Source: a virus
Taxonomy: Duplodnaviria; Heunggongvirae; Uroviricota; Caudoviricetes
Virus record (IMG/VR): IMGVR_UViG_2728369393_000005
Reading direction: 5' to 3' (one strand)
Length of the DNA: 39,238 bases
Shown: one piece after another, positions 5,879-17,758 of the stretch
Numbering within the stretch: the stretch's first letter is position 1
Layout of the letters: every line of letters begins with the position of its first letter
The notes under the pieces: model-generated
The model's input: the letters and a program-made list of their open reading frames with translations, nothing else
Databases searched by the model: none
What the model was told of the DNA's origin: nothing
Position numbers and translations under genes: made by a program

Positions 5879-6332
5879 GCAGCAAATCCGACAGGTCTGC
5901 CGCCAGTGCATGGACCGCTGCCGGGCGGGTGAAACATGGCCTCCGGACCTGGCTGAGTTTGTGGCGCTGATTTCGGAAAGCGGAGCCAATCCATTCGGTC
6001 TGACGGTGGATGCCGTGATGGAGGAGTACCGTCGCTGGCGCAACGAGTCCTGGCGATACGACGGGAGCGATAAATACCCGTGGTCTCAGCCTGTGCTGTA
6101 TCACATTTGCCTCGAGATGCGTTCAAAGGGGATTGAGCGGCAGATGACCGAAGGGGAGTTAAAACGGCTTGCAGAACGGCAGCTGACGAAATGGGCAAAG
6201 CATGTTAGTAACGGCCTGAGTGTTCCGCCAGTCCGGCGACAACTGGCGGCACCCAAACGCCCGTCGGGGCCAACGCCAATTGAGTTGCTGAAACAGGAAT
6301 ATGAACGCCGGAAAGCGGCTGGGCTTGTCTGA
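5667..6332 (+). CDS. Replication protein P-like (helicase loader)
   Basis: Central and C-terminal similarity to lambda P as recalled (WIAQIGAMTEQQIRQV versus WVLAFRENGITTMEQV; YPW ... RQL region); follows the O-like gene. Confidence 0.6.
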   Translation: MQQHQVTPHHGQFRKFGQHVSSGNVKTDLSATETAWKLWELMGEVYSNRWTQKNGAAPSKLWIAQIGAMTEQQIRQVCRQCMDRCRAGETWPPDLAEFVALISESGANPFGLTVDAVMEEYRRWRNESWRYDGSDKYPWSQPVLYHICLEMRSKGIERQMTEGELKRLAERQLTKWAKHVSNGLSVPPVRRQLAAPKRPSGPTPIELLKQEYERRKAAGLV

Positions 6333-6364
6333 GTTGAGAAGTAATTTTTACCGGGAGGAAATTT

Positions 6365-6639
6365 ATGGAGACTGTTTTTGACGCACTGAAAGCAATGGGA
6401 AAAGCCACATCCATAGAACTTGCTGCGCGCGTGAAGAAGTGCTGAACGAACTATGGGAACTGAAAAAGGCTGGTTTTGTTGATAAAAGCGCGTACACCTG
6501 GCGTGTGGCTGATAACAACGTTCAGCAGGAACAGCCAGCGCAGGCAGAACTGCCGGAAGAAACCACCACAATGAGTGAAGTTATGCAGCGCATACTGGCA
6601 TTTTATCAGGGAAATGTTCGATATTTTAGACGTTACTAG
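6365..6639 (+). pseudogene. Small winged-helix-like protein split by a frameshift near 6431..6445
   Basis: ATG 6365 frame ([26 protein letters not shown]-stop) switches to the ORF 6439..6639 frame ([26 protein letters not shown]); the two halves read as one protein with a single-base indel. Confidence 0.4.
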
Positions 6640-7082
6640 ATTAAAGAGCATTAGTTCAGATGTGAATTGACATTGTGTGGCACAGGGTTGGGCTAGCGTG
6701 GGGGTTTGCTTTGTGTAAGAAACGGATGCTCTGCAAATTACTACTAATGCTTAATGTTAGTCTGATCTGCTCCCCGATGATTAATTAATACACCGCTATG
6801 TTAGTAATGTCTGTAGATCGCTGTGTGTTGCATCCATCGGTTGACCCCACAGTCCAAACCAGACTGTCAGCTTTGATTCGATTCTATCTACTCAACCTGT
6901 CAGGTAATGTCTGAGCTAATACACAGAGTACGGCTATCGCGAACTTTAAGCTAGGTATCTGATACGCACCGTTCACTTGGTTGTACTTCTTGCACTGACT
7001 AGCTATCGTGCGCAGTTATTTATAGGTAATCTCCAGTGTATAATTTTCCAACTTATGGGAGATTGTAAAACAGGAGGAATAT

Positions 7083-7925
7083 ATGAGGAAAAAATCGTTT
7101 GGACGTTGCCCGTTTGATTTCGACGAAGATGTAAAAAAAATAGCCGCGATAAATAAATATATCCATGCGAAATTTGAGAGGCATAAAAATAAAATAGATA
7201 ACCTAAAGGGGGTGGAACAAAAATTGATGGTTTTACATTACTTTAATGTACTGAATGAACTTAGTAATCAGGCTATATTTTCTTTGAGTACCGGAGCCTT
7301 TTCAGCATCGGAAGTATTAACTAGAGTTATAATGGAACAGGCTGCCAATCAATTTTATATAGCAATTGATGATGGAAAAAATGCACAAGCATTACTCAAG
7401 GGTAGTAAGAAATTAGTTCATAGTAATGGGAAACGGTGGCTGGAGTGTTTAAAATCCAAAGAAATGACTAATCCAGCAGCAGATGAAAGGATTCGTATCG
7501 GAAAAGAGCTAACTGATATGTTTAATAGATTGTGGCCAAATACACCTGAATATCCTGGAACCAAAAAGCTTTTCGAAGTAATTGGCTGGGAAACACACTA
7601 TCATGCCTATTACGTCCCTCTTTGTGATTCAATACATACATTCTCTGATGATATGGCAAATATAGTATCTCTATATAATGCAATCCAAAGCGATAAAACT
7701 ACTGCTATCGAACTCACTCTTGCAGTTAAACAAGAAAATAAACGGCTGGCAATTTATAATGTCGTAATTGCTATTGGCCTGCGGTGTGAGGCCTTAGTAA
7801 ATGTATTTAACTCTTTAGGTTATCGAGATATTATAACTGAAATGGCGCCAACAATAGATGCAGTCAACCAGATTATAATTCGATATGATGATTTCGAACA
7901 TTCCAGAATTTTTTATTGTCAATAA
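7083..7925 (+). CDS. Hypothetical 280-aa protein with its own promoter and strong RBS; function unknown
   Basis: AGGAGG at 7071..7076 before ATG 7083; TATAAT at 7043..7048; long AT-rich ORF; C-terminal RYDDFEH fits a loose Rx4-6H pattern, speculative. Confidence 0.6.
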   Translation: MRKKSFGRCPFDFDEDVKKIAAINKYIHAKFERHKNKIDNLKGVEQKLMVLHYFNVLNELSNQAIFSLSTGAFSASEVLTRVIMEQAANQFYIAIDDGKNAQALLKGSKKLVHSNGKRWLECLKSKEMTNPAADERIRIGKELTDMFNRLWPNTPEYPGTKKLFEVIGWETHYHAYYVPLCDSIHTFSDDMANIVSLYNAIQSDKTTAIELTLAVKQENKRLAIYNVVIAIGLRCEALVNVFNSLGYRDIITEMAPTIDAVNQIIIRYDDFEHSRIFYCQ

Positions 7926-7999
7926 TTAATTGGCAGAATTCGTACATGCACAACAACTAGTTATAGTTGACCTATTTCGCTCTTGAGAGACAACCATAC

Positions 8000-8551
8000 T
8001 CAAATCTTCCACATTGCAGGAGATTTGAGTATGAATACGTCACCGAGGAACAAAGACAGTATCATAGGCCCAAAAAGACCACTTCAGATATCTCATATCT
8101 GGGGGCTCCAAATCCGGCTTGAACTGGAAGGTAAAACGCGTGATTTAGCTCGGTTTCAAGCAGAGCTACGGTGCTGCAACTGAAAAACTGGCAGTCCTAT
8201 CCAATTTGAGATAACCAAAGGGACAAGAGAAGCTGTTTCTGCATTGATAAAGCTTGGCAATTTACGCAGTAAAGACTACTTGTTCCGATCTCGGGTCGGT
8301 ACTAACCAACACATATCAATCCTGCAATATAACCGAATCTTTCATAGGAGGGAGAAAAGCTTGGTCTCGAAGATTCGCTTTACAGCACACATTCCATGAG
8401 AAGAACAAAACCTTGCCTTGTCTGCAAGAAAACTAAGAATCTCCGGGTGATCCAACTTCCGTTGGGCCATAAGAAAACGGAAAGCACAGTTCGTTATCTG
8501 GGTATAGAAGTTGATGATGCATTAGAGATCTCTGAATCGATCGAAGTCTAA
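8000..8551 (+). pseudogene. Decayed tyrosine recombinase gene (fragments in three frames)
   Basis: Fragments KDYLFRSRVGTNQHIS, ALQHTFHEK and LRVIQLPLGHKKTESTVRYLGIEV-stop (ends 8551) resemble recombinase box II and the C-terminal LGH-x8-Y catalytic tyrosine region, but lie in different frames. Confidence 0.45.
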
Positions 8552-8963
8552 AGCTGTCAGGGCTGCAGCAGCAGCCCTGTGCCAAGAGCGTACCAATATA
8601 TGTCTCAAAAAATTGGGCACAGGTCAATATCAATACCAACAACTCTGATTGTGCTCATGTGATTTACTCCTGTAGAAAACGCAGACAGTAAAAATATTTC
8701 ACTGGCTGCTTCAGACAGGGCGTCCATCATATCATTACATAACAATAGCGGGGCACGATATCTAGACATGCAGCAACGATGGACATAGAATGAGTACAAT
8801 CAAAAGCATGTTTAACTACTTTAATTTAAAAATCTTAGAATCTTAGGTGTAGAGTTCAATACTTAGTTACATACCCTTTTGAAAGCATCACAAATCATAA
8901 CTATGAGCCTGTTAAAGGCATAGGTATTCTTAATTAAGAGCATTTTAATGAGAGAAAAATAAA

Positions 8964-10337
8964 ATGAAAAGACTATATTATACCCATCATGATAGTCGAA
9001 CCTTAAAACTTGCTATAGAAGGTGATGTTTCTGATAATGCGAATATTTTTACAGTAATTGTAGGTAAAAATGGCGTTGGAAAAAGCAGATTGTTATCTCA
9101 GATTGCTAAAGACTGTATTCAAGATGTTCATTTCTTGAAAACTTTTAATCCATTATTTGACAGAGAAATAACACCAAAGTTAATTGCCGTATCTACCAGC
9201 CCATTCGATAAATTCCCTCCAGGGCGTAGGTCATTAAATCACCAAAGGAAAGAAAATAATTATCGCTATGTGGGTATGCGTGGAGAAGGCCCCTTCGGCG
9301 TATCAAATGCCGTATCCCTTTTATCTTCAGCAGCGAGAGGTTGGCTAGAGAAACTTGCTTATTCAGAAAATCCTGCAAATTTACTCGATGTTTTTCATTC
9401 TATTGATTTTGAGCCCCATATAGAGTTTGTATTTAAACCAACTTACAACGGACCGGACACTCCTGACTATAACTTCATTGGTGTATATTCAGATGAGATA
9501 TTAACGGAAGTTAAGGAGTTATATTTAAAATACAATATAAAAATTGACAGGAAGAATATTGAGAGTCTCTTAAAGTTAAACTCCGAATCACGTCATGATA
9601 TTTACGAAGCACTGGTTGAAATTAATCGATTTGAACCTGAACGTAGGGCTGTAACCTTGTCAGTCGATTTTACCAATGGTGAAACATTGGTTGGCTCGAC
9701 TTATGCGAATAATTATTTTTCTAGATCAATTCTTAAACTTATGAACGCTGGCTTCATGAGATTGATGGATATGCGACTCATAAAAAAAAGCTATGGTCCC
9801 ATGTCACTTAAACGTGCGAGCTCGGGAGAACAATGTTTATTAGTGATGTTGCTTGGAATTGCAGGGCATATAACTGATGGTTCTATAATACTAATTGATG
9901 AACCGGAAATAAGCTTGCATCCTCGATGGCAGGAAGAGTTTATCATTATGTTAACAAAAGCATTTTTAACTTACTCAGGTTGTCAATTCATAATTGCAAC
10001 TCATTCACCACAAATAATATCCAATTTGCCGAATAAAGGTTGTTATATAACATCTTTGTCGAAAAGTTATCTTTATAAAGCAAAATACTTTAGCAACCGG
10101 TCTGCAGACTATCAACTTGCGGAACTATTTGATGCCCCTGGCATTATGAATGAATACATTGCCAGATTAGCTTTCAATTTACTTTCAAAAGTTAAGACTG
10201 CTAAGTTAGTAACAGATGATAATTGGCGTGAATTAAAACAACTCCAGCTTCTCCTTGAAAACGTTAATAGTAATGACCCTATTAATGAACTCGTAAATTC
10301 CGTATCTCAGGTGTGTGAAATTTATGCCAAAAATTAA
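8964..10337 (+). CDS. ABC-type (AAA_21/SMC-like) ATPase, 457 aa; PtuA-like candidate
   Basis: Walker A VGKNGVGKSRLL, signature-like SSGEQ, Walker B IILIDEPEISLHP, H-loop IIATHSP; stop overlaps the start of the downstream HNH gene. Confidence 0.75.
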   Translation: MKRLYYTHHDSRTLKLAIEGDVSDNANIFTVIVGKNGVGKSRLLSQIAKDCIQDVHFLKTFNPLFDREITPKLIAVSTSPFDKFPPGRRSLNHQRKENNYRYVGMRGEGPFGVSNAVSLLSSAARGWLEKLAYSENPANLLDVFHSIDFEPHIEFVFKPTYNGPDTPDYNFIGVYSDEILTEVKELYLKYNIKIDRKNIESLLKLNSESRHDIYEALVEINRFEPERRAVTLSVDFTNGETLVGSTYANNYFSRSILKLMNAGFMRLMDMRLIKKSYGPMSLKRASSGEQCLLVMLLGIAGHITDGSIILIDEPEISLHPRWQEEFIIMLTKAFLTYSGCQFIIATHSPQIISNLPNKGCYITSLSKSYLYKAKYFSNRSADYQLAELFDAPGIMNEYIARLAFNLLSKVKTAKLVTDDNWRELKQLQLLLENVNSNDPINELVNSVSQVCEIYAKN

Positions 10338-10959
10338 AAATCCAATTAGATTCAGCGCAGAGTCATTAGATATTATTGAGAAAAAATTGTCTTCTCCAGA
10401 TTTTAAGCATACCAACTGGGGAGATGATGATTTGCAAGTTCTCCGTGCAGAAATTAGAAATCATTACAGAGAAGAACAAAAGCTAGAATGTGTATATTGT
10501 CATGAGCCTATTGGGGTAAGAGCTGCACAAGCTGCTCCTATAGAGCATATTGTGCCAAAATCTCAATATCTATGTTTTATTTTTGAACCTAAGAATCTAT
10601 GTGTAGTATGTCCTGACTGCAATGAATTCAAAGGTAAAAATGAAGTGTTATTTGAACCCGTAATAAATGGGGGGCGGCGCAAAAACTATCCAACTGCATC
10701 TGCATCATTTCGCATCGTTCATCCACATATAGATGATTATGAGATGCATATTATAAAAGCAAATCGTGTTTATGTGGACAAAACACCTAAAGGGCACTAT
10801 ACCATTGGAATATGTAAACTAAATAGATTTTTTCATTATTTTGGGATGTGTGATGAATTTGTTAATGATGCAAAAATTGCTGAGGCAAATGAAAATTTTT
10901 TCAAAAAAGGTAGTATTACTACTAATGAATTATTGGATGATGACATTCATTTGATTTAA
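10324..10959 (+). CDS. HNH endonuclease, about 212 aa; PtuB-like candidate
   Basis: CVYCHEP ... EHIVPKS ... CPDCNEFKG gives the CxxC-H ... H ... CxxC HNH zinc-finger pattern; ATG 10324 overlaps the ATPase 3' end by 14 nt (GTG 10315 by 23 nt). Confidence 0.75.
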   Translation: MPKIKNPIRFSAESLDIIEKKLSSPDFKHTNWGDDDLQVLRAEIRNHYREEQKLECVYCHEPIGVRAAQAAPIEHIVPKSQYLCFIFEPKNLCVVCPDCNEFKGKNEVLFEPVINGGRRKNYPTASASFRIVHPHIDDYEMHIIKANRVYVDKTPKGHYTIGICKLNRFFHYFGMCDEFVNDAKIAEANENFFKKGSITTNELLDDDIHLI

Positions 10960-11272
10960 CTATGAATTATTATATTGTAAAGTAATCAGGTAAGATATGT
11001 TAGACAGTGAGACTATTGCCTTACAGAATTCATTATTCTTATGGATCGCCTTTCTGACTGATTTCATATTGGCGGGGTAACGGGAGTTAAGTAGAATGGC
11101 TGCGGGTGCTTGAGGCTATCTGTCTCAGGCATGAACACCAAAGGCAGATAGAGAAAAGCCCCAGTTAACATTACGCGTCCTGCAAGACGCTTAACATTAA
11201 TCTGAGGCCAATTTCATGCTAGACACATGTAGGTTAGCCTCTTACGTGCCGGAAGGCAAGGAGAAGCAGGCT

Positions 11273-11428
11273 ATGAAGCAGCAAAAGGCGATGTTAATCG
11301 CCCTGATCGTCATCTGTTTAACCGTCATAGTGACGACACTGGTAACGAGGAAAGACCTCTGCGAGGTACGAATCCGAACCGGCCAGACGGAGGTCGCTGT
11401 CTTCACAGCTTACGAACCTGAGGAGTAA
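11273..11428 (+). CDS. hokD: Hok/Gef-family type I toxin (51 aa)
   Basis: MKQQKAMLIALIVICLTVIVTTLVTRKDLCEVRIRTGQTEVAVFTAYEPEE matches Hok-family (HokD/RelF-like) sequence from memory; hairpin and intrinsic terminator follow. Confidence 0.65.
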   Translation: MKQQKAMLIALIVICLTVIVTTLVTRKDLCEVRIRTGQTEVAVFTAYEPEE

Positions 11429-11498
11429 GAGACCCGGCGAGGGAGAAATCCCTCGCCACCTCTGATGTGGCAGGCATCCTCAACGCACCCGCACTTAA

Positions 11499-11517
11499 CC
11501 CGCTTCGGCGGGTTTTT
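11499..11517 (+). terminator. Intrinsic terminator downstream of hok (CCCGC-TTCG-GCGGG + T-run)
   Basis: Stem-loop followed by TTTTTGTT read directly. Confidence 0.4.
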
Positions 11518-11785
11518 GTTTTTATTTTCAACGCGTTTGAAGTTCTGGACGGCGCCGGAATAGAATCAAAAATACTTAAGTAGCGCGCAGGGATAAGAGG
11601 GATGGTCCCTTAAAGGGGAGAGCTAATTATCCGGAAGGATTCTGATGATGAACATCGAAGAACTGCGTAAAATTTTTTGTGAAGATGGCCTCTATGCTGT
11701 GTGCGTTGAAAATGGAAATCTTGTTAGTCATTACCGCATTATGTGTTTGCGAAAGGTAAGCGTCAACGGAGCACCGTATTGACGC

Positions 11786-13401
11786 TTATTTATTGGTGAG
11801 TACTACGTTCCATGGCAGGAGTTCATCAACTCGGTTGGAAGGCCATTCCGGCAGTACGCTCAGGATATGGCGCAGATACGCTTCCGGATCGATACCGTTC
11901 AGACGGCAGGTGCCGATCAGCCCGTACAACAGTGCTCCACGCTCGCCGCCGTGATCGCTGCCAAAGAACATAAACTTTTTCTTTCCGAGACAGACTGCAC
12001 GAAGCGCTCTTTCCGCAGCATTATTATCCGCCTCCGCCAGACCGTCATCACTGTAATAACAGAGGGCATCCCACTGATTCAGTACATAGCTGAACGCTTC
12101 GCCCAGTCTGGATTTTTTCGACAGCGTACCATTCTTCTCCACCATCCATTCATGCAGCGACGTCAGTAACACTTTGCTTCGCTGCTGCCTGACGGCAAGA
12201 CGCTCTGACTCCGGTAATCCCCGTATTTCATCCTCGATGGCGTACAGTTCACTGATTCGCTTCAGGGCTTCTTCTGCCGTCGCACTTTTGCTGCTGATGT
12301 ATACATCGTGGATTTTTCGCCGGGCATGGGCCCAGCACGCAACTTCTGTCAGTGCACCACCTTCACGTTCTGCACTGAACAACCTGTCGTAACCTGTGAA
12401 CGCATCCGCCTGCAGGATACCCCGGAAGGGGCGGAGGTGTTGCTCCGGGTGTTTCCCCTGCCGGTTCGGCGAGTACGCGAACCAGACCGCTGGAGGAGAT
12501 GACGAACCCACATTGCGATCATCCCGGACATACGTCCAGATACGCCCTGTTTTCGCCTTTTTCTGACCCGGTGCCAGTACCTTTACCGGTGTGTCATCAG
12601 TGTGAACCTTGCGGGTGTTCATTACATAACGGTACAGGGCATCATTCACCGGTGTCATTAACTGGCAGCACGCGTCAACCCAGTTGGAGAGTAAGGCCCG
12701 GCTCAGTTCGACACCCTGGCGGGCAAAGATTTCACTCTGACGATACAGTGGCAGATGTTCGCAGTATTTTCCCGTTAACACGCGGGCAAGTAATCCGGGG
12801 CCCCCGCGATACCACGCTCTATCGGGCGGGACGGCGCCGGTGCTTCAACAATACAGTCACATTTTGTACAGGCTTTTTTTACCCGTTCTGTGCGGATCAC
12901 TTTCAGGGCACTGCTCACCAGTTCCAGCTGTTCAGCGCTGACTTCCCCCAGATAATCCAGCTCACCGCCACACTCCGGGCAACAGCTTTCTTCTGGCTCC
13001 AGGCGGTGTATTTCTCGGGGAAGGTGTGCCGGTAACGGACGACGATGGCGCGACTGTCGCAACTGGCGGGGAACCTGAGGATCGTCTTCCCGCCCACTGT
13101 AACGATCGCTGTCCTGTTCACGTTGTTTCAGCAGAGCCTCAGCCAGTTCAACTTCACGACGCAGTTTTTCAGAACGGGTACCGAACAGCATCCGGCGCAG
13201 TTTTTCTATCTGAGCCCGCAGATGTTCTATTTCCCGTTCATCTTCTTCGATCTTTTCTTCGGCACGTGTCAGTGCAGAGCGCAGGAAGGCTTCCGTCTCT
13301 TCAACCAGACTCAGTTGCTGGTCTTTCTGACGGAGGGCTTCAGCCTGCTCAGAGAGCAATCTTTCCAGCTCTGCGATGCGAATGAGGTATTTCTGACTCA
13401 T
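11786..13401 (-). pseudogene. IS66 transposase TnpC, split by a frameshift at a G/C homopolymer (12797..12805)
   Basis: N-terminal fragment 12775..13401 (Cys-rich zinc-finger CCPECG ... CTKCDC) and C-terminal fragment 11786..12781 (GKYCEHLPLYRQ ...) together equal a full-length TnpC. Confidence 0.75.
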
Positions 13402-13431
13402 GACCGTTTTTATAATGCGGTCAGGAGTTTT

Positions 13432-13782
13432 TTACAACATTGTCAGTGAGTTACGGCTGGATGTTTTTGGCTGACGCCAGTCCAGCTTATCGAGGAGCAT
13501 TGCCAGTTGCGAGCGGGTAATGGATACCTTGCCGTCACGTACCGCAGGCCAGATAAACTGGCCTTCCTCCAGGCGTTTGGTGAACAGGCACAGACCATCA
13601 GCATCAGCCCAAAGAATTTTGACGGTGTCACCCCGTCGGCCACGGAAGATAAACAGGTGACCGGAGAAGGGATTATCATTCAGCACATGTTGTACCTGTT
13701 CTCCCAGTCCGTTGAAGGATTTACGCATATCGGTAACGCCGGCAACGAGCCAGATACGGGTACCTGATGGGAGTGAGATCAT
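13432..13782 (-). CDS. IS66 family TnpB (Orf2)
   Basis: 116-aa ORF (MISLPSGTRIWLVAGVTDMRKSFNGL ...) typical of IS66 Orf2, upstream of tnpC. Confidence 0.8.
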   Translation of the reverse strand: MISLPSGTRIWLVAGVTDMRKSFNGLGEQVQHVLNDNPFSGHLFIFRGRRGDTVKILWADADGLCLFTKRLEEGQFIWPAVRDGKVSITRSQLAMLLDKLDWRQPKTSSRNSLTML

Positions 13783-14204
13783 CTTCCCCTCCCGGTCAGT
13801 TCACGGATCAACACCGTGAGCAGCTCTGGCGATGGATTTTCCAGCGTCATGTTACCGTGACGGAATTCCACCTTGCAGGAACTGGCACTGACTCTGGTCT
13901 GAGTGGAAGTGGATAAAGACGGCGCAATGGCCGCCACAGGTTCTTTCTGCTCATCCGGCGTTATTTCTACAGGTAATAATTCAACGCCAGTGTCAGAAGA
14001 GGTCGTTACCGGAAGACGCCGCGAAACACGCCCTTCGTTCTGCCAGAGCCTGAGCCATTTGAAAATAACATTATCATTGACGCCATTTTCACGTGCAATC
14101 TGTGCAACACAAGCTCCAGGTTGTGATGCCAGTTCCACCATACGAAGTTTGAATTCATTCGAATAGTTTTTACGAGGTTCTTTTCGCCAGTCCTGTAATT
14201 CCAT
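13779..14204 (-). CDS. IS66 family TnpA (Orf1, HTH)
   Basis: 141-aa ORF overlapping tnpB by 4 nt; first gene of the IS66 operon. Confidence 0.75.
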   Translation of the reverse strand: MELQDWRKEPRKNYSNEFKLRMVELASQPGACVAQIARENGVNDNVIFKWLRLWQNEGRVSRRLPVTTSSDTGVELLPVEITPDEQKEPVAAIAPSLSTSTQTRVSASSCKVEFRHGNMTLENPSPELLTVLIRELTGRGR

Positions 14205-14257: not shown

Positions 14258-16183
14258 ATGGCTACATACGGCGGTCAGTTTACGCTTACGGTGATCACCG
14301 GGATTACGTCAACGCCTTCTCCGGATCGGGATGGTGACATCCTGGAGCCGGAGGGGGCGGAGTTTGGCTGTGCGATCCCGTTTCTCTGGCAGCATGACCA
14401 TTCCCGCCCGGTGGGCCAGTGTACGGTACGCCGGGTCAGTGAAGGTCTGGAAATCACGGCAACACTGGTGAAGCCCGTACCGGATATGCCGTCGCAACTG
14501 GCTGCCCGGCTGGATGAGGTCTGGGCGGCCATTAAGACCGGGCTGGTCAGGGGGCTGTCCGTGGGCTTCCGTCCCCATGAATACACCTTTCTGGACGGAG
14601 GCGGACTGCATTTTCTGCGCTGGGAACTGATGGAGGTGTCTGCCGTCACCGTGCCCGCGAATGCGGAATGCACCATCCGGACCATTAAATCTTACGACCG
14701 CCCGTTTTCTGCCGCGTCCGGCAACCGGAAACCGGTGGTGAAAATCGCATCTTCTGCCGTCGCTGCGGCACAGTCAACAACCGTTTTTCATAAGGAAAAG
14801 ACAGTAATGAATACTGGTGAACAGATTAAAAGTTTTGAAAACAAGCGTGCTGCACTGGCAGCCTCTCTTGAGGAGATCATGACCAAAGCCGCAGAGGAAG
14901 GCCGCACGCTGGATGTGGAGGAGGAAGAGCATTACGACAACACCGCGGCGGAAATCCGCCAGGTGGATGCGCACCTGAAGCGTCTGCGTGAACTGGAGGC
15001 CGGTAAGGCCGCCACGGCACAGCCGGTGAAACAGGCCGGTAACGGTGACGTTGTGACGGTGAGTTCAGTGACGGTGAGTTCAGCGCCGGTGATCCGTGTG
15101 GAGCAGAAACTGGATAAGGGGATTGGCTTTGCCCGCTTTGCCAAATCGCTGGCTGCGGCTAAAGGTGTCCGCTCTGAGGCCCTGGAAGTGGCCCGTCGTC
15201 AGTATCCGGATGACAGCCGTCTGCACCATGTCCTGAAATCGGCGGTGGGGGCGGGAACCACCACGGATCCACAGTGGGCAGGCAGCCTGTCTGAATACCA
15301 GGAATATGCGCAGGACTTTATTGACTATCTGCGTCCGCAGACCATTATCGGGCGATTTGGTCAGGGCGGGATCCCTGCACTTCGTCAGGTGCCGTTCAAT
15401 ATCCGCGTGCATGCCCAGGTGTCCGGCGGTGCTGCCAGCTGGGTGGGGGAGGGTAAGGCAAAACCGCTGACGAAGTTTGATTTTGAATCCATCACCTTCA
15501 GTCATGCGAAGGTGTCGGCCATTGCGGTACTGACGGAAGAACTGATCCGTTTTTCCAGTCCGGCTGCTGATGCGCTGGTCCGTAATGCGCTGGCAGAAGC
15601 GGTGGTGGCGCGTCTGGACACAGACTTTGTGGACCCGAAAAAAGCGGCGGTGGCGGATGTCTCCCCGGCGTCCATCACCCATGATGTGAAGGGCACGGCA
15701 TCAACCGGTAACCCGGATGCGGATGCCGAGGCCGCGTTTGGCCAGTTTGTGACGGCAAATCTGCAGCCCACTGGTGCGGTCTGGCTGATGTCCAGCACGA
15801 ATGCCCTGGCGCTGTCCATGCGTAAAAATGCGCTGGGTCAGAAGGAATATCCGGACATGACCCTGCTGGGCGGGACCTTTCAGGGGCTTCCGGTGATTGT
15901 CTCCCAGTATGTGGGTGACCAGCTGGTACTGGTGAATGCACCGGATATTTATCTGGCGGATGACGGCGGTGTGGCAGTGGATATGTCCCGTGAAGCGTCA
16001 CTGGAAATGCAGTCTGAGCCGGGCGGCGACAGCACCACACCGTCGCCGGTGGAGCTGGTTTCCATGTTCCAGACCGGCAGCGTGGCCATCCGTGCGGAGC
16101 GCTGGATCAACTGGCGTCGTCGCCGTACTGCGGCGGTGGCGGTGATCACCGGTGTGAACTACGGCAGTGCGTCCGGCGGCTGA
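14258..16183 (+). CDS. HK97-family prohead protease fused to major capsid protein (641 aa)
   Basis: N-terminal DRDGDIL ... LSVGFRP ... LMEVSAVTVPAN protease motifs, then a capsid-like C-terminal domain; the first ~11 codons lie inside the IS66 terminal repeat, so the true start may be GTG 14291. Confidence 0.75.
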   Translation: MATYGGQFTLTVITGITSTPSPDRDGDILEPEGAEFGCAIPFLWQHDHSRPVGQCTVRRVSEGLEITATLVKPVPDMPSQLAARLDEVWAAIKTGLVRGLSVGFRPHEYTFLDGGGLHFLRWELMEVSAVTVPANAECTIRTIKSYDRPFSAASGNRKPVVKIASSAVAAAQSTTVFHKEKTVMNTGEQIKSFENKRAALAASLEEIMTKAAEEGRTLDVEEEEHYDNTAAEIRQVDAHLKRLRELEAGKAATAQPVKQAGNGDVVTVSSVTVSSAPVIRVEQKLDKGIGFARFAKSLAAAKGVRSEALEVARRQYPDDSRLHHVLKSAVGAGTTTDPQWAGSLSEYQEYAQDFIDYLRPQTIIGRFGQGGIPALRQVPFNIRVHAQVSGGAASWVGEGKAKPLTKFDFESITFSHAKVSAIAVLTEELIRFSSPAADALVRNALAEAVVARLDTDFVDPKKAAVADVSPASITHDVKGTASTGNPDADAEAAFGQFVTANLQPTGAVWLMSSTNALALSMRKNALGQKEYPDMTLLGGTFQGLPVIVSQYVGDQLVLVNAPDIYLADDGGVAVDMSREASLEMQSEPGGDSTTPSPVELVSMFQTGSVAIRAERWINWRRRRTAAVAVITGVNYGSASGG

Positions 16184-16449: not shown

Positions 16450-17758
16450 GAGAGGCGGGCTGGACCAGCCTGTTTCAGGCGGTGGCTGAGCCCTTTGCCG
16501 GCGCCTGGCAGCAGGGTGTGAAAGCCGATCCGGAAAGTGTCCTCTCCTTTCATGCGGTGTTTTCTTGCATTTCGCTGATATCCCAGGATATCGCCAAAAT
16601 GCGGCTGCGCCTGATGCAGACGGATACACAGGGGATCCGCCGTGAAAAACGGCAGGGGGATATTGCCCGTCTCTGTCGTCGTCTCAATGCACAGCAGAAT
16701 CGTATCCAGTTTTTTGAACTGTGGCTGAACGCCAAACTGCGTCACGGCAATACGGTGGTGCTGAAAATCCGTAACTCCCGGGGCAGATCAAAGAACTGCG
16801 TATTCTGGACTGGAGCCGGGTTGAACCTCTGGTGGCGGATGACGGCGAGGTGTTCTATCGCATCACGCCGGACCGGAACTGCGGGATCACGGAGGCGGTG
16901 ACGGTGCCTGCCCGGGAAGTGATCCACGACCGGTTTAACTGTTTTTTTCATCCGCTTGTGGGGCTGCCGCCGGTGTATGCCGCCGGGCTGGCGGCCACGC
17001 AGGGGCATCATATTCAGGAAAATTCGACGTCTTTTTTCAGAAATGGCGGCAGGCCGTCCGGGGTGATTGAGATCCCCGGCAGTATTACGGAAGAAAATGC
17101 GAAAAAACTGAAGAGCAACTGGGACAGCGGGTATACCGGCGAAAATGCGGGGAAAACGGCCATTCTGAGCAACGGAGCAAAATACAACCCCACGACGTTT
17201 TCACCGGTGGATGCGCAGACGGTGGAACAACTGAAGATGACCGCTGAAATTGTCTGTTCGGTGTTCCGTGTCCCGGCCTACAAGATTGGCGTTGGCCAGC
17301 CACCTTCCAGTGACAACGTGGAGGCGCTGGAGCAGCAGTATTATTCCCAGTGCCTGCAGACGCTGATTGAGTCCATTGAACTGTTACTGGATGAGGCGCT
17401 GGAAACGGGGGAAAACGAGAGTACGGAGTTTGACGTCACCACGCTGCTGAGAATGGACAGCGAACGTCGCATGAAAACGCTGGGTGAATCGGTGAAAAAT
17501 ACGCTTCTCACGCCCAATGAGGCCCGTAAACGTGAGAACCTGCCGCCCCTTGCCGGCGGTGATGCACTGTATCTTCAGCAGCAGAACTACAGTCTGGAGG
17601 CGCTGTCCCGTCGTGATGCCCGTGAGGATCCGTTCGCGTCTTCCGGGAAAACGTCGTCAGGCACACGCCAGGAGGGCGCGTCTGACGGTAATAAGGCCAT
17701 AAGCGAAACAGAGCGTGATGCGGTGAAGGCGATGTTCAGGGGGATACTGCGAAAATGA
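16395..17758 (+). CDS. HK97-family portal protein, interrupted by a frameshift near 16775..16790 (CCCGGGG run)
   Basis: Fragments 16395..16901 and 16832..17758 join into one portal-like protein; GKTAILSNGAKY ... VDAQTVEQLKMTAEIVCSVFRVPAYKIG is a portal signature. Confidence 0.7.

Follow-up and report, generated by a model that had tools for sequence, protein, structure and literature searches.

The window examined here is the whole 39,238-nucleotide stretch of the Caudoviricetes record IMGVR_UViG_2728369393_000005 in IMG/VR, and it is a lambdoid prophage of Escherichia coli. Between positions 8031 and 8551 it carries what looks like a tyrosine recombinase gene that can no longer be read in a single frame. 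The locus thus raises the question of what this gene once encoded, whether its lesions are real and old, and what its intact relatives might do. The interval is almost certainly a non-functional relic of a 200-amino-acid, catalytic-domain-only tyrosine recombinase, and it is fixed in a small clade of E. coli lambdoid prophages. The pseudogene itself is already known, flagged in RefSeq and ordinary; decayed prophage recombinases are common. Its value is that of a pointer to intact relatives, which lie in defence-rich, site-bounded cassette arrays of Enterobacterales.

Identity and lesions of the recombinase relic

A preliminary description of the window had placed a recombinase remnant with multiple indels at 8000–8551, scattered across three reading frames. 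A tblastn search of the whole window with an intact 200-amino-acid homologue (WP_001305361.1, “site-specific integrase,” locus L002:6054-6656) returned two collinear matches with a joint E value of 6.8e-71. The first aligned homologue residues 1–132 with positions 8031–8345 in frame +3, and the second aligned residues 137–200 with 8357–8548 in frame +2; the next best matches elsewhere in the window all had E > 4. The refutation proposed in the preliminary description, that no significant frameshift-aware alignment to tyrosine recombinases would be found, therefore fails. When the three indels described below were conceptually repaired, the translation of the window matched the Pfam family Phage_integrase (PF00589) at 33 bits (E 6.6e-8), above the gathering cut-off of 27.1 bits; the intact homologue scored 69.1 bits (E 5e-19). 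In addition, RefSeq independently calls a pseudogene at the mapped interval, annotated “frameshifted; internal stop,” under E2348C_RS06545 in strain E2348/69 and BCV59_RS26330 in strain CFSAN004176. The window is 100% identical to CFSAN004176 over 6300–12700 and to E2348/69, the enteropathogenic E. coli reference strain, over 7900–8700. No evidence contradicting the pseudogene call was found.

The mapping altered some details of the preliminary picture. The gene begins at 8031 rather than at 8000, and it does end at 8551, with a TAA stop codon at 8549–8551. The absence of any open reading frame (ORF) of more than 66 codons was borne out by the ORF list and by three-frame translation: the longest ORF in the relic region has 66 codons, and no uninterrupted reading frame spans the gene. 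Two of the peptides singled out earlier, DYLFRSRVGTNQHIS (8277–8321) and LGHKKTESTVRY (8465–8497), proved by tblastn to be true homologous segments, the latter with the catalytic Tyr codon at 8495–8497. The third, ALQHTFHEK, is a chance resemblance in the wrong frame; the homologous reading at that place is LYSTHSMRRTK, which holds the HxxR box at 8390–8401. The homologous reading path runs through two frames only (coordinate mod 3 = 0 and 2), with three switches between them.

The lesions were defined by DNA alignment to three intact-copy references from different contexts, FDAARGOS_536, S88, and JS316; the intact copies at loci L002, L003, and L006 share 88–91% nucleotide identity with the window copy. 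The same three indels, namely an 82-bp deletion, a +1 insertion, and a −1 deletion, were found against all three references, in agreement with the multiple indels proposed earlier. In the intact gene, the stretch lost in the large deletion is flanked by a 10-bp direct repeat, TAGCTCTGTT, of which a single copy, TAGCTCGGTT, is left in the window. A deletion between such repeats is typical of slippage or of microhomology-mediated deletion. The deletion takes out residues ~40–67 (ALFNMALDSKLRGCDLVKLKVSDVAYGS), among them the catalytic Arg-I (R51 in LRGCDL). It also shifts the frame, so that a product started at the ATG would be an N-terminal fragment of 50 amino acids. The +1 insertion lies in the A-run at 8183–8187, which is A5 here versus A4 in the intact copies, and it restores the original frame. 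The same run contains the codon of the beta-hairpin Lys (8183–8185). The 1-bp deletion at 8352/8353 moves the reading to the frame with coordinate mod 3 = 2 for the remainder of the gene, where the last segment retains the catalytic His codon (8468–8470) along with the HxxR box and the Tyr codon located above. Thus, the full catalytic set R-K-HxxR-H/W-Y is no longer present, as Arg-I is deleted and the codons for K, HxxR, H, and Y are spread over two frames. The segments of the reading path are listed in Table 1.

Could these lesions be sequencing or assembly errors in a gene that is intact in the cell? Two of them are single-base indels, and one of the two sits in the A-run 8183–8187, a typical site of error. 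However, all three indels are common to the three aligned sequences, the window (equal to E2348/69 here), HEC0003, and PEC0010, which come from independent assemblies, and the PEC0010 lineage is only 98.4% identical to the window and additionally has its ATG changed to GTG. Besides, the 82-bp deletion cannot be a homopolymer error, and residues of the protein are substituted as well: W6R, R27Q, W134R, Y159C, and L171P in the window copy all hit positions that are invariant in 36 homologues. An explanation by error is scarcely credible in view of this, and the concern of the preliminary description that read support should be checked at each frame switch is answered by the recurrence of the same lesions in independent assemblies, including the 98.4%-identical lineage. 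The locus was found at ≥95% identity in 19 E. coli records, all of which annotate a tyrosine-type recombinase/integrase at this position; four of these records were opened, and all four carry the pseudogene flag. As every close copy inspected has the same lesions, the 98.4% variant among them, these are real and old.

It is also very improbable that the gene is still expressed, whether through programmed frameshifting or as separate functional fragments. The hairpin over the Shine–Dalgarno sequence and the ATG are intact, and a 50-codon N-terminal ORF and a 51-codon C-terminal ORF (8396–8551, starting with MRRTKP) are present. However, three frame changes would be required, the catalytic Arg-I and ~27 residues of the fold are gone from the DNA, and the C-terminal ORF alone has no Pfam match. 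The substitution pattern likewise speaks against selection on the protein. The window lineage has accumulated 32 private substitutions, of which 19 are nonsynonymous and 13 synonymous, compared with 61 nonsynonymous and 101 synonymous in eleven intact lineages together (Fisher p = 0.03, on a modest sample). Intact close homologues, inherited lesions, and relaxed selective constraint, the marks of a pseudogene, are therefore all found at this locus, and the relic is an old, fixed, decaying pseudogene, neither an assembly error nor a programmed frameshift. The 82-bp deletion disabled the gene, and the +1 and −1 indels followed, together with missense changes at family-invariant residues.

Other copies are damaged or altered too. 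The copy in FHI_NMBU_11 (L010:6057-6659) has an internal stop at W134, and in the S88 copy (L003:9287-9871) the last 36 nt are replaced, which leaves a 194-amino-acid ORF without the downstream B site described below. These copies suggest recurrent decay of the recombinase.

Intact relatives and the cassettes around them

The intact homologue has the complete catalytic set R-K-HxxR-H-Y (R51, K79, H148, R151, H174, and Y183). Its family comprises at least 8,000 protein clusters at 90% identity among the matches listed, all under generic names. Relatives with 61–97% identity occur in more than 547 stretches of species-representative genomes from Gamma- and Betaproteobacteria and beyond, as well as on 444 plasmids. 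They are encoded in only 3 of 50,697 isolated phage records and are thus rare in cultured phages. In the literature, no existing description of this small-recombinase family was found, and PADLOC has no model that matches the recombinase. An AlphaFold2 model of the intact homologue, built on a 36-sequence alignment, was poor, with a mean predicted local distance difference test score (pLDDT) of 59.6 and a predicted template modelling score (pTM) of 0.48.

Comparison of related loci demonstrated that the recombinase gene belongs to a unit of ~700 bp, with its ends 54 bp before the ATG and ~44 bp beyond the stop codon. This unit has sharp homology boundaries across nine E. coli contexts (at least nine unrelated ones), and the genes on either side of it have no relation to one another and in many cases resemble defence genes. 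Its edges fall on two 24-bp motifs, A (GTCCGCTnn-TCGCTC-nnAGCGGAC) and B (GTCCGCTnn-GTGCCA-nnAGCGGAC), each with 9-bp inverted arms around a 6-bp spacer. In the related loci (L002, L005–L025), the sites take the forms GTCCGCTnnTCGCTCnnAGCGGAC (A) and GTCCGCTnnGTGCCAnnAGCGGAC (B). In 23 Enterobacterales loci, the two motifs gave 200 matches versus 0 in shuffled sequence, a count in which the same site may be scored as both A and B and on both strands. The sites are nearly all in one orientation and build arrays of the order B[c]A.B[c]A.int.B[c]A (for example, L006:2843-8253 and L010:3578-8087), in which the recombinase gene takes the place of the ~18-bp spacer of one A.B junction.

The ends of the homology blocks shared between loci follow these sites closely: 476 of 574 lie within 25 bp of a site centre, versus 2.3% of random positions, although many of these ends belong to the recombinase unit itself. 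A 1.2-kb cassette is 99% identical in the lambdoid prophage JS316 and in the CP4-like island of FHI_NMBU_11, with homology that starts within the B site and runs to just past the A spacer. In CP4-like islands, a lone B marks the point where the backbone homology ends, and a lone A on the opposite side marks where it starts again. The cargo of the related loci includes the defence systems SIR2-HerA, DUF4297-HerA, PD-T7-1, PD-T7-5, HEC-08, and PDC-S31, further type IV restriction and Mrr-type nucleases and a Lit-like peptidase, and also GNAT, NUDIX, and transporter genes. Perfect B sites were found in at least 120 IMG/VR contigs. Of these, 80 were fetched (L093–L172), and most of them have a single B...A pair, with the two sites 0.9 to 4 kb apart.

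From these comparative footprints, that is, from breakpoints located at the sites, we infer that the recombinase of the intact relatives acts on A and B. The intact enzyme would bind the arms shared by the two sites and exchange strands within the 6-bp spacers. A cargo flanked by B and A would then be swapped for another one in two crossovers (B×B plus A×A), or it would leave as a circle that carries an A.B junction and would reinsert at any A or any B site. Insertion, excision, and swapping of cassettes, many of which are anti-phage, could in this way take place among prophages, genomic islands, and plasmids. A more far-reaching reading, which we put forward tentatively from sequence comparison and rate as less likely than not, is that the dead gene of the window may be a fossil of a very widespread cassette-shuffling system, composed of a 200-amino-acid recombinase within an A.B junction, a hairpin that sequesters the ribosome-binding site, and natural exchange of anti-phage cassettes, bracketed by B on the left and A on the right, between P2-like and lambdoid prophages, CP4-like islands, and plasmids.

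Several observations weigh against such a system. The stretches fetched from 78 of the 80 viral contigs with B sites have no recombinase match, and only two encode the recombinase; the action would thus need to be in trans or by another enzyme, and most cassettes would be non-autonomous. The architecture is not uniform, since in Pseudomonas-type relatives the gene seems to be flanked on either side by B-type sites in inverted orientation. In the window itself, the A and B sites score 10–15 of 20, which is chance level by motif, and they were recognised only by alignment; none of them reaches the 16/20 usual in live arrays.

The inverted B-type sites of the Pseudomonas-type gene could also be read as a sign that the intact family consists of DNA invertases similar to FimB/FimE, which flip the unit or a neighbouring promoter, the relic of the window being a frozen switch. 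The FimB/FimE-like size of ~200 amino acids, the lack of an N-terminal core-binding domain, and a weak similarity to the NCBIfam model of tyrosine-type DNA invertases (25.5 bits) agree with this, as do the resemblance of A to an inverted B, with four of six spacer positions in common, and the flanking genes, which are directed outward from the unit in five of the nine E. coli contexts. We nevertheless consider an invertase unlikely. The model score is far below its cut-off of 222, the spacers of A and B differ at two of six positions, and single-piece matches in hundreds of E. coli records showed only one orientation of the unit with respect to its flanks. Inversion also fails to explain why so many B...A cassettes have no recombinase and why unrelated elements hold identical cassettes whose breakpoints are located at the sites. 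Another explanation would treat the 700-bp unit as a selfish insertion element of A.B junctions and would ascribe the turnover of cargo to homologous recombination at conserved flanks. The unit sits exactly in place of the ~18-bp spacer of the A.B junction, most cassettes have no linked recombinase, and the gene is often inactivated, as shown by the window copy, the internal stop in L010, and the replaced 3′ end in S88. However, where two contexts are compared, their homology breaks off inside the 24-bp sites, at the 6-bp spacers or directly beside them. Such a length is too short for efficient RecA recombination, and the pattern is the signature of site-specific exchange; apart from the site arms, no sequence is shared by all cassettes. 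A purely selfish unit is for these reasons improbable.

By sequence, the nearest solved relatives of the intact homologue are XerD and XerA (E ~1e-3). It shares PF00589 and the catalytic set with the tyrosine recombinase superfamily (XerC/XerD, XerA, Cre, and lambda Int), and the inferred A/B sites have the classical inverted arms around a 6-bp spacer. Unlike those enzymes, it has only 200 amino acids and neither an N-terminal core-binding nor an arm-binding domain, and the window copy moreover lacks Arg-I and an open reading frame. XerC, XerD, and XerA have ~300 amino acids and an N-terminal core-binding domain, and their alignment to the homologue spans the catalytic domain only; the respective equivalog models gave 49.6, 32, and 58 bits, below their cut-offs of 335, 330, and 220. 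The FimB/FimE invertases are of similar size (~200 amino acids), consist essentially of the catalytic domain alone, and have binding arms of ~9 bp. However, their NCBIfam models gave only 25.5 and 18.2 bits (cut-offs ~222), no invertible promoter segment was seen, and the sites bracket whole cassettes, identical copies of which occur in unrelated elements.

Integrons (IntI, attI, and attC), among them chromosomal integrons that store defence cassettes, are similar in that a tyrosine recombinase stands within an array of promiscuous, often anti-phage, site-bounded cassettes. The IntI model TIGR02249 gave only 15.9 bits with the intact homologue (cut-off 265), and the sites of the family are two short cores of the double-strand 9-6-9 type with different spacers rather than folded attC hairpins. 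In addition, the cassettes of the family are found to the left and to the right of the recombinase and point in either direction, most arrays have no linked integrase, and most of them sit inside phages and islands. The pdif/Xer modules of Acinetobacter plasmids are likewise bounded by short core sites; however, the A/B sites have no sequence similarity to dif and are presumably served by a dedicated small recombinase instead of the host XerCD, and neighbouring cassettes do not share a single site but have an A.B pair between them. The A and B sites repeat the design of engineered recombinase-mediated cassette exchange with heterospecific lox/FRT sites, where identical arms and different spacers flank each cargo, and the mechanism proposed here would be its natural counterpart. 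In loci of the Pseudomonas and Pseudoalteromonas type (L039, L031, L090, and others; for example, L039:8270-8310), a second conserved motif, GTTTTTACACAG(Y)CTGG, often stands before the B-like motif, and the inverse of this second motif comes after the recombinase gene.

The fun(Z) gene of phage P2 (AF063097) lies between a B site at 15335–15358 (19/20) and an A site at 17432–17455 (16/20), which correspond to L214:1336-1359 and L214:3433-3456. Judged by these sites, fun(Z), a classical lysogenic-conversion moron, would be one such B...A cassette. The P2-like prophage of S88 carries a DUF5677 gene and the recombinase at the same locus, whereas P2 itself has no recombinase of this family there. 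A 2004 article by Nilsson, Karlsson, and Haggard-Ljungquist reportedly links, in its title, site-specific recombination to this P2 locus, and the A/B sites there may already have been noticed at that time. The same may not hold for the enzyme, for the grammar of two sites, or for how widespread the system is, and the context of cassettes and sites is possibly new. The turnover of defence hotspots has so far been ascribed mostly to homologous recombination at conserved flanks. If the recombinase drives exchange at A and B sites, it would offer a concrete mechanism for their rapid turnover in phages and islands, as well as a compact natural enzyme for cassette exchange.

A hairpin over the start codon

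The inverted repeat at 7995–8033 pairs the Shine–Dalgarno sequence and the start codon of the relic with upstream bases. A hairpin at this place is present in most of 75 distinct family members, and its stem sequences differ, so that the structure and not the sequence is kept: the stems covary, with 52 distinct 3′ arms among the 75 sequences. The mean minimum free energy is −12.9 kcal/mol, as opposed to −7.8 kcal/mol after shuffling of the upstream part. No Rfam family was found in the region 6500–9100. Inhibition by fold-back is known for the transposases of IS10 and IS50. By analogy, the hairpin may prevent expression of the enzyme from read-through transcripts.

The array of the window and its surroundings

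In the window, homology with other contexts starts at the TCGCTC spacer of the degenerate A site to the left of the relic (Table 1). The A-like half site farther left is preceded by a conserved leader of ~55 bp (6762–6808), and half site and leader are shared with the P2-like prophage of S88. The lone B site at the left end of the cargo has decayed; at the same backbone position, prophage JS316 has an intact B, GTCCGCTTTGTGCCAAGAGCGGAC. Between the Septu cargo and the phage backbone, which resumes at ~11030, no terminal A was found, and a search of the window for the A-site consensus with up to three mismatches gave 0 matches; under relaxed scoring, the counts were those expected by chance. 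The 3′ hairpin at 8558–8593 has no T-tract and was not called a terminator, and a scan for promoter and terminator consensus sequences near the relic revealed nothing above chance.

The pair of the DUF5677 gene and the recombinase has ~89% nucleotide identity to its counterpart in the tail-gene hotspot of the S88 P2-like prophage, where the DUF5677 protein (L003:8338-9180) is 87.5% identical in amino acids to that of the window. Among 90 loci, DUF5677 occurs only in the window clade and in S88, and the idea that DUF5677 is an obligate partner of the recombinase was rejected. PADLOC has no model that matches the DUF5677 protein. In Bacillota, DUF5677 was found to be enriched near serine recombinases and was one of nine ORFs tested, and it is not among the five protective ORFs named in the section consulted of that preprint (bioRxiv 10.1101/2025.10.07.681051). 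Immediately to the right of the dead recombinase lies an apparently intact Septu system.

The simplest reading of this arrangement is that a once mobile array became fixed in the prophage clade and is eroding. With a dead recombinase and mutations in the flanking sites, the cargo of DUF5677 and Septu (PtuAB) genes is probably locked in place, and the array can probably no longer move by this route.

Table 1. Features of the recombinase relic, the candidate sites, and the cargo in the window.
Feature	Position	Strand	Basis or remark
Decayed lone B site, left end of cargo array in backbone, GTTTGCTTTGTGTAAGAAACGGAT	6704..6727	+	Alignment; 14/20
A-like half site GTCTGTAGA-TCGCTG-..., left end of DUF5677 segment	6809..6832	+	11/20
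DUF5677 gene, cargo beside recombinase	7083..7925	+	Pfam, alignments
Degenerate A site, left edge of unit, TGACCTATT-TCGCTC-TTGAGAGAC	7968..7991	+	10/20; alignment
Perfect 13-bp inverted repeat CATACTCAAATCT-N13-AGATTTGAGTATG	7995..8033	+	Repeat scan
Pseudogene of 200-amino-acid catalytic-domain-only tyrosine recombinase, ATG to TAA	8031..8551	+	tblastn, RefSeq, Pfam PF00589
Segment 1, codons 1–38 (MNTSP...TRD)	8031..8145	+	Frame with coordinate mod 3 = 0
Junction of 82-bp deletion	8146..8155	+	Alignments; gap placement varies only within repeat
Segment 2, codons ~68–79 (SVSSRATVLQLK)	8156..8187	+	Readable in frame mod 3 = 2 only
First in-frame stop (TGA) from ATG	8181..8183	+	Translation, ORF list
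Segment 3, codons 80–134 (TGSPIQFEITKGTREAV...YNRIFHRR)	8188..8352	+	Back in frame mod 3 = 0
1-bp deletion site	8352..8353	+	GGGTAG in intact copies vs GGGAG here
Segment 4, codons ~136–200 (EKLGLEDSLYSTHSMRRTK...LGHKKTESTVRYLGIEVDDALEISESIEV*)	8354..8551	+	Frame mod 3 = 2
Hairpin CAGGGCTGC-AGCA-GCAGCCCTG overlapping right-edge B site	8558..8593	+	Alignment
Right-edge B site AGCAGCCCT-GTGCCA-AGAGCGTAC	8570..8593	+	15/20; right arm G->T vs consensus AGCGGAC
Septu PtuA ATPase	8964..10337	+	PADLOC 1.2e-165; Pfam AAA_21/AAA_15
Septu PtuB HNH nuclease	10324..10959	+	PADLOC 1.1e-83; Pfam HNH

Some further observations concern the surroundings of the array. A frameshifted remnant of a DUF1627 gene (6366–6571), whose C-terminus is missing, ends just before the decayed B site and marks the junction from backbone to cargo. 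An imperfect inverted repeat of 35 nt with 77% complementarity (6996–7030 and 8734–8768) encloses the DUF5677 gene together with the relic; no inverted repeat of the region is longer, and this one may be due to chance. Downstream of the cargo lies the type I toxin gene hokD (11273–11428), an arrangement also seen in other lambdoid prophages that have this hotspot. The window lacks the Q, lysis, and tRNA region of the E2348/69 prophage, and the window prophage is thus probably defective. An IS66-family element, ISEc23 (tnpA, tnpB, and transposase), occupies 11786–14204 on the minus strand, directly between a truncated rem gene and the late structural genes; in E2348/69, by contrast, an IS481-family element is inserted after ptuB.

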